Both the position numbers and the translations under genes were made by a program. From Candidatus Binatia bacterium (GTDB taxonomy: Bacteria; Desulfobacterota; Binatia; UBA9968; JAJDTQ01), in assembly GCA_963666515.2 (NCBI GenBank), contig OY762897.2, forward strand, positions 4,576,001 through 4,640,000: a DNA stretch of 64,000 nucleotides, in the 5' to 3' direction. Positions 1 through 3,491 of the stretch are shown here, one piece after another (position 1 is the first letter of the stretch; every line of letters starts with the position of its first letter). The notes under the pieces are model-generated. The model ran no database searches. It had not been told where the DNA came from and saw only the letters and a list, made by a program, of their open reading frames with translations.

Positions 1-303
1 AGACGGATGGAATTTAATGCACCCATGGACATGCGATTGTGGAGTGACCTACTAAATCGGACGATTCTCTTTATTGGGTACAGTTTTCGTGACCCAAACG
101 TGGCCTACCTTTTTCGACGCGTTAAGGAGCGATTCGCGGAACTGCCGGATACGGTCGATGGCTACCGGGCACACATAGTAGTGCAAGAACCGTCTAGGTT
201 TGAGCGGAGGTTGTTTCAAGAACGCAATATTCAGGTGATCCCTATAGACAGTGGTGACCTTACGCAACAGGTAGCGGCGCTGCTGGACGAAATCCGGAGT
301 TAG
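1..303 (+). CDS. SIR2-like (SIR2_2) domain protein, 3' part only (5' end outside window)
   Basis: Frame open from base 1; TILFIGYSFRDPNV matches the LFIGYSxxD C-terminal motif of SIR2_2 NADase-like proteins. Confidence 0.8.
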   Translation, partial: RRMEFNAPMDMRLWSDLLNRTILFIGYSFRDPNVAYLFRRVKERFAELPDTVDGYRAHIVVQEPSRFERRLFQERNIQVIPIDSGDLTQQVAALLDEIRS

Positions 304-306
304 GCT

Positions 307-963
307 ATGGCACAGGCAAAGAAGACACGTGTTGTTTATGTAACCAGCAGTGCATTTAAGCAGGAAGAGAACGCAGTATTCGTTGAACACTGCCGGTTGG
401 ATGACGGCAGGGTCGTTGGTGACGTTTTTGAGTTCGACATTCGGAGAGTGCCGATACAGGAAATCCTAAACGTGGACCTTAGGGTGATGGTCGCGGCTGA
501 GGTTGTGAGTGCGTACAGTCAGCTTAAGGTGCCCTGTATCGTCGAGCACGCCGGTCTCATATTTGAGGAGTACCTCGATGCGTCTTACCCAGGCGGGCTA
601 ACGAAACCGATGTGGGACACGCTGAAACAGGGTTTTGTGGATGAGACCAACTCGGCGAATAGAAAGGCTATCGCAAGGGCCGTTGTTGCATACTGCGACG
701 GAATGACTGTCAAGACGTTCGTCGGGGAGACGAGGGGGACCATTGCGGAGCAGCCTCGTGGTGACCGGGAATTCTATTGGGATACAGTATTTGTTCCGGA
801 TGATCCGTCCGGCAAGGCAACGGGGATGACGTACGCCGAAATCGCTCAGACTCGGTCACTGGGGCTACAGTATAAGGTGACGGAACTCTCGCAGTCGTCG
901 GTGGCGATGAAGAGCTTTCTTCGCCACCGTATCGAAGTGGGTGATCCCGCGCTCTGGCGGTAG
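307..963 (+). CDS. HAM1/ITPase-family (non-canonical purine NTP pyrophosphatase-like) protein with altered catalytic motifs
   Basis: YVTSSAFK, IVEHAGL (canonical E/DDSGL), YPGGLTK, GETRGTIAEQPRGDREFYWDTVFVP, TYAEI, SQS (canonical SHR); starts 3 nt after the SIR2 stop. Confidence 0.85.
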   Translation: MAQAKKTRVVYVTSSAFKQEENAVFVEHCRLDDGRVVGDVFEFDIRRVPIQEILNVDLRVMVAAEVVSAYSQLKVPCIVEHAGLIFEEYLDASYPGGLTKPMWDTLKQGFVDETNSANRKAIARAVVAYCDGMTVKTFVGETRGTIAEQPRGDREFYWDTVFVPDDPSGKATGMTYAEIAQTRSLGLQYKVTELSQSSVAMKSFLRHRIEVGDPALWR

Positions 964-1191: not shown

Positions 1192-1351
1192 TCAGTGATA
1201 GTCGATCAGGTCCAGGTCCACGGCTTCGCCGCCCACGAACCTGAACACTGCACGCCAGTTGCCGGATACACGAACACTTTGACGGCCAGCCCGGTCCCCC
1301 TTCAAGATGAAGCCGGGCGCGTCGCCACTACTTGGATGTGTTGCCTCTTGC
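1192..1351 (-). pseudogene. higB: HigB (RelE-like killer) toxin C-terminal remnant
   Basis: LKGDRAGRQSVRVSGNWRAVFRFVGGEAVDLDLIDYH is the typical HigB C-terminus; N-terminal half missing. Confidence 0.75.
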
Positions 1352-1399
1352 AATAGGATTCCTTGAAAATTGACCATTGACAGCGTAATATTCAAGGAA

Positions 1400-2545
1400 A
1401 TGCCTTTCATCGAGCGAGACGCAATAGAATTCCAGGTCACCCGTGCGTTGCGACGCAGCAGGGGTGTGGTGCTACTGGGTCCCCGCCAGTCGGGCAAGAC
1501 TACCGTGGCGCGCCGCATCGCCAGCGGTCAGCAGGGCGAGTATTTCGATCTTGAGGATCCGTCCGATGTGGCTCGTCTGGAGGCTCCCAGGCTGGTGCTG
1601 GAACGCGCGCAGGGTCTCGTCGTCCTGGACGAGATCCAGTTGCGGGTGGATCTTCTGCCTTTGCTGCGCGTGCTCCTGGACCGGCAGCCGCTTCCGGCCA
1701 AGTTTCTGCTCCTGGGCAGCGCGGCGCCTGAAATCGTGCGGGGCGCTTCCGAGACCCTCGCAGGCAGGGTAGAGATGGTCGCCATGGCGGGTTTCCGCTT
1801 GGCCGAGGTCGGCGCTACCGGTCGTGACAGGCTGTGGCTGCGCGGAGGCTTCCCGCCGTCGTTCCTCGCCGATTCCGACGAGGACAGCTTCGCTTGGCGC
1901 GACAGCTTCGTACAGACGTTCGTCGAGCGCGACCTCCGTCGCTGGGGTTTCGAGATGGCGCCCGCGGCCATGCGCCGCTTCCTGACGATGACCGCCCATC
2001 TCCACGGGCAGCGCTGGAACGCCTCGGCCGTAGGCTCTTCGCTTGGAATCTCGCAGAATACGGTGCGGCGCTACCTGGACCTTCTCACGGGCGCCTATCT
2101 GACCCGCCAACTGCACCCGTGGTTCGAAAATGTCGGCAAGCGGCTTGTCAAATCACCGAAGGTCTACGTCCGTGACAGCGGTGTGCTGCATGCCCTGCTG
2201 GGCCTGGAGCGTCAACGCGAGGTGGAGTCCCATCCCGGGCACGGCGCTTCGTGGGAGGGCCTCTGCGTCGAGGAGATCGTCGCCGTTCACGGCGAGCGGA
2301 ACTGCTGGTTCTGGGCCACTCACGGCGGAGCCGAACTGGACGTGCTGGTGCTCGACCGCGGACGGCGCATAGGCTACGAGTGCAAATTGACGGACACCCC
2401 GAGAATGACCAAGTCGATGCACGTGGTGCTGGCCGATCTCAAGCTCGACCATCTGTTCGTCGTCTATCCCGGGGAGCTACGGTTCCCGCTCGCGGAGCAT
2501 GTGACTGCAATCGGGCTGGCTGACATCGGGCGCGACCCGGCCTGA
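1400..2545 (+). CDS. AAA+ ATPase (AAA_14) with DUF4143 / C-terminal PD-(D/E)xK-like domain
   Basis: Walker A GPRQSGKT, Walker B LDEIQ, LLGSA, ETLAGR, GGFP, KSPKVYVRDSG, ELDVLV..GYECK; AAGGA before ATG 1400. Confidence 0.9.
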   Translation: MPFIERDAIEFQVTRALRRSRGVVLLGPRQSGKTTVARRIASGQQGEYFDLEDPSDVARLEAPRLVLERAQGLVVLDEIQLRVDLLPLLRVLLDRQPLPAKFLLLGSAAPEIVRGASETLAGRVEMVAMAGFRLAEVGATGRDRLWLRGGFPPSFLADSDEDSFAWRDSFVQTFVERDLRRWGFEMAPAAMRRFLTMTAHLHGQRWNASAVGSSLGISQNTVRRYLDLLTGAYLTRQLHPWFENVGKRLVKSPKVYVRDSGVLHALLGLERQREVESHPGHGASWEGLCVEEIVAVHGERNCWFWATHGGAELDVLVLDRGRRIGYECKLTDTPRMTKSMHVVLADLKLDHLFVVYPGELRFPLAEHVTAIGLADIGRDPA

Positions 2546-3200: not shown

Positions 3201-3491
3201 GTTCGTGGTCCTGCTCGTGCTCTTTCGTCCGCCGCTGTCCGGCGGTGGCGCGTCTGTCATGGAACTGAGAAAAAAGCTATCGATTTCAAGGGAAAAACCG
3301 AACGGACAATGCAATTCGGATATCAATTCAAGGTGGAACTGTCAAGGTGAAGCCCCCTCCCTGGCGGTCGGGGACGCGATTGGAAATCCGGCCGCGCCTT
3401 GGCTAAATTGGGATGGAGCGCCTTTGCGGCGGCCCACCTCCCGCAAGACGTACAACTACCCGAATTATCAGGGGGTCCGTTTCTTCCCATC

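Follow-up and report, generated by a model that had tools for sequence, protein, structure and literature searches.

The DNA analysed here is a stretch of 64,000 nucleotides (nt; 'the window') from a Candidatus Binatia bacterium (assembly GCA_963666515.2, contig OY762897.2, positions 4576001–4640000), the first 963 nt of which form the 3′ end of a five-gene operon encoded on the + strand; the other three genes of this operon lie upstream of the window. We describe the operon as a whole in the coordinates of an extended locus (L004; contig positions 4561001–4579000), where the window position equals the L004 position minus 15000. At the 'front' of the operon is a gene for a Dam-family D12 DNA adenine methyltransferase (290 amino acids; L004:11441–12313; PF02086), followed by one encoding a fusion of HARE-HTH, Nudix-fold and nucleoside monophosphate (NMP)-kinase-like domains, which we refer to as HNK (L004:12322–13869; 515 amino acids from its ATG, or 519 from an alternative GTG start at L004:12310). 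The third gene encodes a TehB-like, small-molecule methyltransferase of the S-adenosylmethionine (SAM)-dependent type (207 amino acids; L004:13866–14489; PF03848). The fourth, for a predicted KomC-like SIR2 enzyme that would hydrolyse nicotinamide adenine dinucleotide (NAD+; an 'NADase'), spans L004:14476–15303 (275 amino acids; SIR2_2), beginning 524 nt before the window and ending at window position 303; the fifth, at window 307–963, is for a predicted and catalytically disabled KomB-like sensor of 218 amino acids, with the fold shared by HAM1 and the inosine triphosphatases (ITPases).

The five genes are co-directional, overlapping or nearly abutting, and together sit in a 4.5 kb block (L004:11441–15963) with a guanine-plus-cytosine (GC) content of 53.1%, as compared to 69.0% for the preceding 10.6 kb. 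Within the window itself there are two open reading frames (ORFs) on the + strand: positions 1–303, open at the 5′ end and holding the last 100 codons of the SIR2 gene, and positions 307–963 (218 codons), with just 3 nt (GCT) between the TAG stop of the first and the ATG of the second. The original prediction, made from the window, had described a SIR2_2 C-terminus followed after 3 nt by a HAM1-fold gene, both lower in GC than the genes of the host; this description stands, with profile matches for both ORFs well above chance and a GC content of 53.3% for window 1–963 against 64.2% for the remainder of the window.

For the SIR2 protein, the match to the SIR2_2 profile found with the 100-residue fragment (E 5.9e-10) strengthens to E 2.1e-29 with the full 275-residue gene. 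Its best solved relative is KomC (8zsf; E 1.8e-38), the alignment covering residues 5–258 and therefore almost the full length of the protein. N120, H158 (equivalent to H146 of KomC) and D206 (D194 of KomC) are all present, and are invariant in 77 of the 77 SIR2 sequences that we aligned. H146 and D194 are described as essential to KomC (Zeng et al. bioRxiv 10.1101/2024.12.20.629578; PMC13454610), and immune NADase effectors are reported to conserve the aspartate equivalent to D206, which non-immune deacetylases lack (PMC13454610). We take the SIR2 protein to be a KomC-type NADase, predicted to have all of its catalytic residues in place. In PADLOC v2 it matches only the generic SIR2 parts of other systems; the ThsA models, for example, cover just the SIR2 part (profile positions 19–214 of 478). 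ThsA of the Thoeris system is a fusion of SIR2 to a SLOG (STALD) signal-binding domain, unlike the protein described here, which at 275 residues has no further domain.

The HAM1 ORF matches the Ham1p_like profile (E 3.5e-15), and the solved structures closest to it are the KomB-type chains 9v0g (E 6.9e-23) and 8zsg (E 1.4e-22), with the archaeal and human ITPases far behind; PADLOC v2 has no model for it. The pair of proteins is thus homologous to the solved KomC/KomB complex (E 1.8e-38 and ~1e-22, respectively), as anticipated when the two genes were first called Kongming-like. The score against the TIGR00042 model is low (46.6 bits against a cut-off of 145), and the genome encodes a separate, housekeeping RdgB that aligns with the HAM1 protein throughout. 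This alignment bears out the motifs as originally read: EHAGL (residues 80–84) stands against EDTGL in the RdgB of the same genome, FYWDT (156–160) against WGYDP, and SQS (195–197) against SHR. H81 takes the place of the catalytic aspartate, whilst the nucleotide-binding residues K18, E21 and E52 are kept. According to the preprint of Zeng et al., the HAM1 proteins of defence systems always have histidine for the catalytic aspartate, retain the residues that bind the nucleotide, and show tight linkage to KomC. Because of this same replacement of aspartate by histidine, we consider the HAM1 protein to be a KomB-type sensor, predicted to be unable to hydrolyse its ligand, and so agree with the original proposal of a non-hydrolysing sensor.

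Saying this, the catalytic 'remodelling' of the enzyme requires some qualification. The general-base motif reads VEHAGL here, VEHTGL in KomB and VEDTGL in RdgB, and the F-x-W-D frame is also common to KomB, with x being tyrosine in our protein and glutamine in KomB. Since canonical KomBs read EHTGL and FQWD, the EHAGL motif is no peculiarity of this gene; as judged by alignment, both it and F-x-W-D are the ordinary KomB state and mark membership of the defensive clade. The histidine-for-aspartate change originally noted is real; the novelty attached to the two motifs is not.

In Kongming, KomA deaminates deoxyadenosine monophosphate, and a phage deoxynucleoside monophosphate kinase together with host NDK then raise the product to deoxyinosine triphosphate (dITP), as reported by Zeng et al. 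(preprint) and in PMC13454610. We see no adenosine deaminase among the genes of the operon, and PF00962 returns 0 matches in the whole genome (98.35% complete). In agreement with the original prediction no deaminase follows the pair either, what lies downstream being a HigB-like remnant and a DUF4143 ATPase. A tblastn search of all collected loci with the KomA of a Vibrio plasmid found matches in canonical KomABC loci only, and in no locus linked to HNK and the methyltransferase. The check originally suggested, namely a search of the upstream sequence for a signal enzyme, proved decisive: it revealed the conserved TehB-like methyltransferase and the HARE-HTH/Nudix/kinase protein, accompanied by the Dam-type methyltransferase.

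HNK is built from three parts. Its N-terminus is a HARE-HTH domain (E 4.6e-9); the middle section has a Nudix fold nearest to that of TM1382, a putative Nudix protein (3e57; E 1.2e-8, Foldseek TMt 0.71); and the C-terminus is a P-loop NMP-kinase domain, matching the kinases 3lw7 and 3h0k at E ~1e-5. In the structure model (predicted local distance difference test score, pLDDT, 85), the nearest fold to the kinase domain is that of 3lw7, an adenylate-kinase relative bound to adenosine monophosphate (AMP; Foldseek TMt 0.80), followed by adenylate and UMP/CMP kinases. Both enzyme domains look active, as the REx2EE and GFGGH motifs of the Nudix section, the Walker A sequence GSGK, and DGxR are invariant in 26 aligned relatives of HNK.

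The product of the third gene matches both the TehB family (PF03848; E 3.4e-15) and the solved TehB 4dq0 (E 9e-12); it scores just 68.8 bits against the TehB equivalog NF008405 (cut-off 218) and is, by this measure, a relative of TehB and not TehB itself. Its model (pLDDT 91) has as nearest folds TehB and other methyltransferases, all of which act on small molecules, including the heterocycle N-methyltransferases Rv0560c and NodS and, more weakly, toxoflavin methyltransferases. Across 12 orthologues the SAM motif is invariant, and a TehB-like, histidine-rich motif at the C-terminus shows little or no variation. In two metagenome loci, from the scan described below, the gene is split by ~1.25–1.5 kb of inserted DNA (L064:6721–7976 and L089:7634–9112).

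The Dam-type gene is readily assigned (PF02086, E 2.4e-40; TIGR00571, 195 bits with a cut-off of 114.85), and its FxGxG motif is present as FLGGGA; motif IV reads DPTY. The closest relatives have DPTY or DPAY at this motif, and orthologues further away have the usual DPPY or DPPF. Iyer et al. (2016, PMC4738411) describe a recurrent association of HARE-HTH domains with N6-adenine methyltransferases and with restriction enzymes, and propose that these domains read modified DNA; the proposal is treated as unproven in PMC11037411, with cytosine marks perhaps being read instead.

We examined the linkage of these genes in two scans with independent seeds, using HAM1 to search contigs of one genome per species and HNK to search metagenome contigs. 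The HAM1-seeded scan produced 16 loci, and in 12 of these HNK, the methyltransferase, SIR2 and HAM1 are found together; of the other four, L015 and L017 are cut by contig ends, L013 is a decayed remnant and L019 is rearranged at the start of its contig. Counts for the HNK-seeded scan rest on the best 80 of 213 encoding stretches. The methyltransferase, SIR2 and HAM1 all lie beside HNK in 52 of the 80, the remaining 28 being too short to tell, and none of the metagenome loci with at least 2300 nt downstream of HNK is without the three partners. The commonest arrangement is Dam-HNK-methyltransferase-SIR2-HAM1 (35 loci), then the same order without Dam (12), with three loci instead reading methyltransferase-SIR2-HAM1-Dam-HNK. 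One apparent exception, L097, where HNK is followed by 1841 nt and no methyltransferase, was rejected as such; its contig is cut 2 nt upstream of HNK, and the three loci just mentioned place HNK last.

SIR2 and HAM1 are adjacent, with SIR2 first, in every complete locus (12/12 from genomes and 52/52 from metagenomes); the gene order originally noted is real. Eight of the 12 complete genome loci carry a D12 methyltransferase, seven copies having been identified by tblastn and the eighth, a divergent one in L012, by Pfam; the Dam gene is also present in 53 of 64 testable metagenome loci. Named hosts from the HAM1-seeded scan belong to the Acidobacteriota, Nitrospirota, Actinomycetota, Verrucomicrobiota, Bacteroidota and Alphaproteobacteria.

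The published work on KomB allows a closer look at the ligand site of the sensor. As reported by Li et al. (Nat Commun 2026, PMC13454610), H11, the backbone of F140, and Q141 bond to the 6-carbonyl of hypoxanthine, Q141 and W142 crowd the 2′ position, and R168 stabilises the base; mutation of F140, Q141, W142, K49 or R8 abolishes defence. Of the residues that recognise dITP, our protein keeps W142, with N9 replaced by serine, H11 by phenylalanine (F, Y or H across its clade), Q141 by tyrosine and R168 by serine. Specific to the clade are S15, Y157, the S-Q-S at 195–197, and two insertions.

We compared these motifs across 76 HAM1 ORFs from all of our loci, and also in one additional KomA-linked locus; the HAM1 match in L046 proved to be an ordinary RdgB in the flank (DDSGL, SHR) and was left out of the counts. 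The KomBs linked to KomA (10/10) have asparagine at N9 and histidine or asparagine at H11, followed by EHTGL (EQTCL in one case), FQWD and SMR, and the E. coli KomB (chain 8zsg) has the same set, including FQWD and SMR. In the 'long' clade, to which our gene belongs, the first two positions are serine and then F, Y or H; the motifs are EHAGL (59 of 60 ORFs, the remaining ORF being without that region), FYWD, and SQS in all 59 ORFs that reach it. A second, 'short' clade (181–186 residues) has asparagine and then phenylalanine, EHGGL, FQWD, and SQA in 5/5. These short-clade loci (L070, L071, L092, L096 and L105; also L109, which is cut) carry the same HNK and TehB-like methyltransferase module, paired with a SIR2 merely 30–35% identical to ours, which points to either an exchange of modules or a deep divergence within the family. 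By alignment, the sole change that tracks the module in both clades is that from S-[MN]-R to S-Q-[SA], with the predicted loss of the Arg168 equivalent. The original prediction had taken the loss of SHR as a hint of a different ligand. Here, the loss of the arginine is real, canonical KomB keeping this residue as S-M-R; the feature that distinguishes our protein is the S-Q-S in combination with tyrosine for Q141, from which we infer that its ligand may differ. When the tree is rooted on RdgB, both methyltransferase-linked clades fall into one group, though with only moderate support (93/66), while the group of KomA-linked sequences is well supported (98/93).

Turning to the surroundings of the operon, the distance between a formyltransferase-domain gene and an ABC transporter gene (L004:10609 to window position 3399) is 7.8 kb in our genome; in five genomes of the same genus it is 1.06, 3.5, 3.75, 11.5 and 18.9 kb. 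As the spacing of these two conserved flanking genes differs among congeners, the island occupies a hotspot for variable accessory DNA in the genus. A search for HNK in 60 relatives, including 27 congeners, came back empty, and viral contigs yielded only canonical KomABC-type relatives (32% identity), none belonging to this clade and thus giving no sign of carriage by phage. The flanks of the 12 genome loci contain, amongst others, HEPN_Swt1 plus DUF499, AbiGi, AAA_15/AAA_21, DndB, HsdM, integrases, a relaxase and a resolvase.

Sharing the hotspot with the operon are a VapBC-like pair, a HigB-like remnant and the DUF4143 ATPase. The VapBC-like pair (L004:10672–11417) consists of a weak MazE-like match (E 0.019) and a PIN domain (E 3.3e-18); its GC content of 61.7% falls between that of the island and that of the host, and it ends 23 nt 5′ of the Dam start. 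The HigB-like toxin remnant, at window 1192–1305 on the − strand, retains a C-terminus ending in DYH (PF05015, E 3.2e-4, below the cut-off), and the stretch around it (1009–1314) recurs at 72% identity at other places in the genome (L002, L003). The ATPase, which combines AAA_14 with DUF4143 (window 1370–2545, + strand), matches the PADLOC candidate PDC-S01 (E 2.7e-78); despite its place in the same hotspot, it is unlinked to the five-gene module at other loci. Elsewhere, an AAA_28 gene (NadR-type, kinase-like) is located just 5′ of Dam at L009:1732–2715 and L011:3460–4149, and may be an accessory tied to NAD metabolism; a Sulfitobacter locus (L018:9912–12047) has a 711-residue protein combining phosphoribosyltransferase and NADAR downstream of the module and beside a resolvase. 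Across the island and its flanks, an Rfam scan found no match at E 0.01 or better, and no tRNA was found in the 18 kb of L004. Of direct repeats that might mark the ends of the island we found a single 14-nt pair, located inside genes and taken as chance. A scan of the locus for promoters and terminators gave no more sites than did shuffled sequence.

Set alongside Kongming of E. coli NCTC13216, the operon has in common with it a KomC-homologous SIR2 carrying the equivalents of H146 and D194, a KomB-homologous HAM1 partner with the same aspartate-to-histidine change and the same K/E/E set of nucleotide-binding residues, and effector genes that are adjacent, co-inherited and found in a defence-island or mobile context. 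It differs in that KomA is absent, its place being taken by the TehB-like methyltransferase and the HARE-HTH/Nudix/NMP-kinase protein; it carries a kinase of its own, where Kongming borrows that of the phage, and usually a Dam-type methyltransferase as well. SIR2 precedes HAM1, the canonical order being KomB-KomC, and the sensor, with its 218 residues and two insertions, has S15, Y157 and S-Q-S for the N9, Q141 and S-M-R168 of KomB. With RdgB and ITPA, the sensor shares the HAM1 fold and the phosphate-binding residues; unlike them it is coupled to SIR2, and its catalytic aspartate, G-Y-D motif and S-H-R base-specificity motif are all altered. The adjoining of a Dam-family methyltransferase and a HARE-HTH protein in one operon recalls the methylation-marked defences described in PMC4738411. 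Unlike restriction–modification there is no nuclease, the proposed output being a nucleotide signal and the depletion of NAD+, and Dam is dispensable at some loci.

An architecture of this kind is partly foreshadowed in print. In their preprint, Zeng et al. name a SAM-dependent methyltransferase and an NTPase as occurring with KomBC when KomA is absent, listing them as uncharacterised candidate types, and for such associations leave open 'dITP or other nucleotide-based' signals; these candidate types very likely include the arrangement seen here, although the sentence on them offers no domain analysis, counts of linkage, differences in sensor motifs or experiments. The discussion of Li et al. 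similarly allows for different signals where KomA is replaced by another enzyme (PMC13454610). We found no paper in the literature that defines or tests this architecture, the preprint's single sentence (its fig. S19 was not seen) being all that we could locate. The operon is, then, an uncharacterised Kongming variant, partly anticipated in print, to which our analysis adds the complete set of genes, the domain composition of HNK, the linkage established from two independent seeds, a second effector clade joined to the same input module, and the sensor residue that tracks the module.

On balance, we lean towards a horizontally acquired, Kongming-family anti-phage operon in which KomA has been replaced by another nucleotide-modifying module, the signal probably being a methylated nucleotide. 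The effector half of this picture is well supported by homology; the input half we infer from domain content. In our model, SIR2 and HAM1 would form a ready-made assembly that stays inactive for as long as its HAM1 subunits have no non-canonical nucleoside triphosphate bound. Upon infection, HNK and the methyltransferase would make a methylated nucleotide from an ordinary nucleoside or deoxynucleoside triphosphate ((d)NTP): the Nudix domain generating the monophosphate, the methyltransferase methylating it, and the kinase domain of HNK beginning a re-phosphorylation that host NDK would complete. The product would be the counterpart of dITP in Kongming, made without need of a phage kinase; with the kinase built in, the trigger would therefore be something else. 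Binding of the modified triphosphate to HAM1 would switch on hydrolysis of NAD+, and the infected cell would stop growing or die.

As to the chemistry of the signal, TehB is known to methylate an oxyanion. The predicted loss from the sensor of the arginine that reads the 6-oxo group would suit a methylated purine (d)NTP as ligand, with methylation of base, sugar or phosphate all possible. The presence of a Dam gene beside that of a HARE-HTH protein suggests self-marking, together with the sensing of unmarked DNA; HARE-HTH and Dam methylation of the cell's own DNA could then act as a self/non-self sensor that gates synthesis of the signal. This is the least secure step of the mechanism, since the Dam gene is missing from a minority of loci. 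The complete chain, where a methylated NTP messenger is 'written' by the TehB-like methyltransferase and HNK, with HARE-HTH detecting DNA unmarked by Dam, and is 'read' by an arginine-less, dead ITPase that activates the SIR2 NADase, we put forward tentatively, as something possible rather than probable.

Several observations weigh against such a reading. Of the 64 testable metagenome loci, 11 yielded no Dam-type gene, and HARE-HTH may simply be a transcriptional regulator. Because both methyltransferase-linked HAM1 clades group together, the correlation between motif and module probably represents a single evolutionary event, to be counted as one observation and not as 64. H11 remains histidine in some members, and the short clade retains both N9 and Q141. 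The solved KomB-like protein 9v0g, which is the best match in the PDB to both methyltransferase-linked clades, reads FHWD and S-P-L (chain A) where KomB has FQWD and S-M-R; it too is without the arginine, and if its ligand is dITP then the argument from this residue becomes weaker. A plasmid locus of Pantoea ananatis (L023; the one examined of 95 Pantoea records with a match) has KomBC, with a sensor that reads SNR, and no neighbouring signal enzyme; KomBC pairs of this sort exist, and enzymes found beside KomBC therefore need not be signal synthases. The chemistry of the signal is likewise deduced from domain content, with anti-phage activity, activation of the NADase and the methylated nucleotide itself each being predictions from sequence.

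The best of the alternatives, which we nonetheless consider unlikely, has HNK and the methyltransferase acting after the NADase: cleavage of adenosine diphosphate ribose (ADP-ribose) by the Nudix domain and N-methylation of nicotinamide by the methyltransferase would block the reconstitution of NAD+ by the phage, with HAM1 sensing a nucleotide made by phage or host. Many Nudix enzymes do cleave ADP-ribose, but a proline ~15 residues past the Nudix box is typical of the ADP-ribose pyrophosphatases and is not seen in HNK. SIR2 NADases are reported to release ADP-ribose and nicotinamide, and phages to rebuild NAD+ from the former (PMC13586617, PMC12774641). The scheme draws on chemistry known for both enzyme families, but leaves HARE-HTH, the Dam gene and the kinase without a role. 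It is helped by the heterocycle N-methyltransferases among the nearest folds of the methyltransferase, by the binding of AMP in the nearest fold of the kinase domain, and by KomBC pairs that are able to stand without a signal enzyme, but the change in the HAM1 ligand site that accompanies the module is left unexplained.

A shade less probable again is ordinary Kongming signalling, where the sensor would read dITP (or else inosine or xanthosine triphosphate) that comes from phage enzymes or from a deaminase not linked to the operon, and where HNK and the methyltransferase would be regulators or passengers. Such a ligand is in keeping with the retention of K18, E21, E52 and F-x-W-D, with the signals left open in the preprint of Zeng et al., and with 9v0g, which shows that the arginine of S-M-R is not universal among KomB-like proteins. 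Against it, R168, and in this clade also Q141, is replaced throughout, both being called critical for dITP recognition in PMC13454610, and PF00962 was not found in the genome; linkage to HNK and the methyltransferase, held at every testable locus from two independent seeds, is moreover a poor fit for passengers. A non-immune role, as an operon for nucleotide-pool or DNA-methylation housekeeping with HAM1 acting to sanitise methylated nucleotides and SIR2 to deacetylate proteins, is very improbable: all five protein families do have housekeeping members, but the HAM1 protein has lost its catalytic aspartate in a genome with its own RdgB, the SIR2 protein has the aspartate of immune NADases (D206), and the operon is patchily distributed (0/60 relatives), low in GC and found with defence or mobile neighbours.

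Returning to the Kongming-family operon that we favour, the variant is now defined by four conserved core genes, to which a Dam gene may be added, and is widespread among phyla of the soil. Kongming itself provides the precedent that a base-modified nucleotide, dITP, can serve as an immune messenger. If our proposal is true, then the signal described here would be the first nucleotide alarm to be written by methylation, and would directly link self-marking in the style of restriction–modification to abortive infection; detectors of modified nucleotides might also be developed from the HAM1 sensor.

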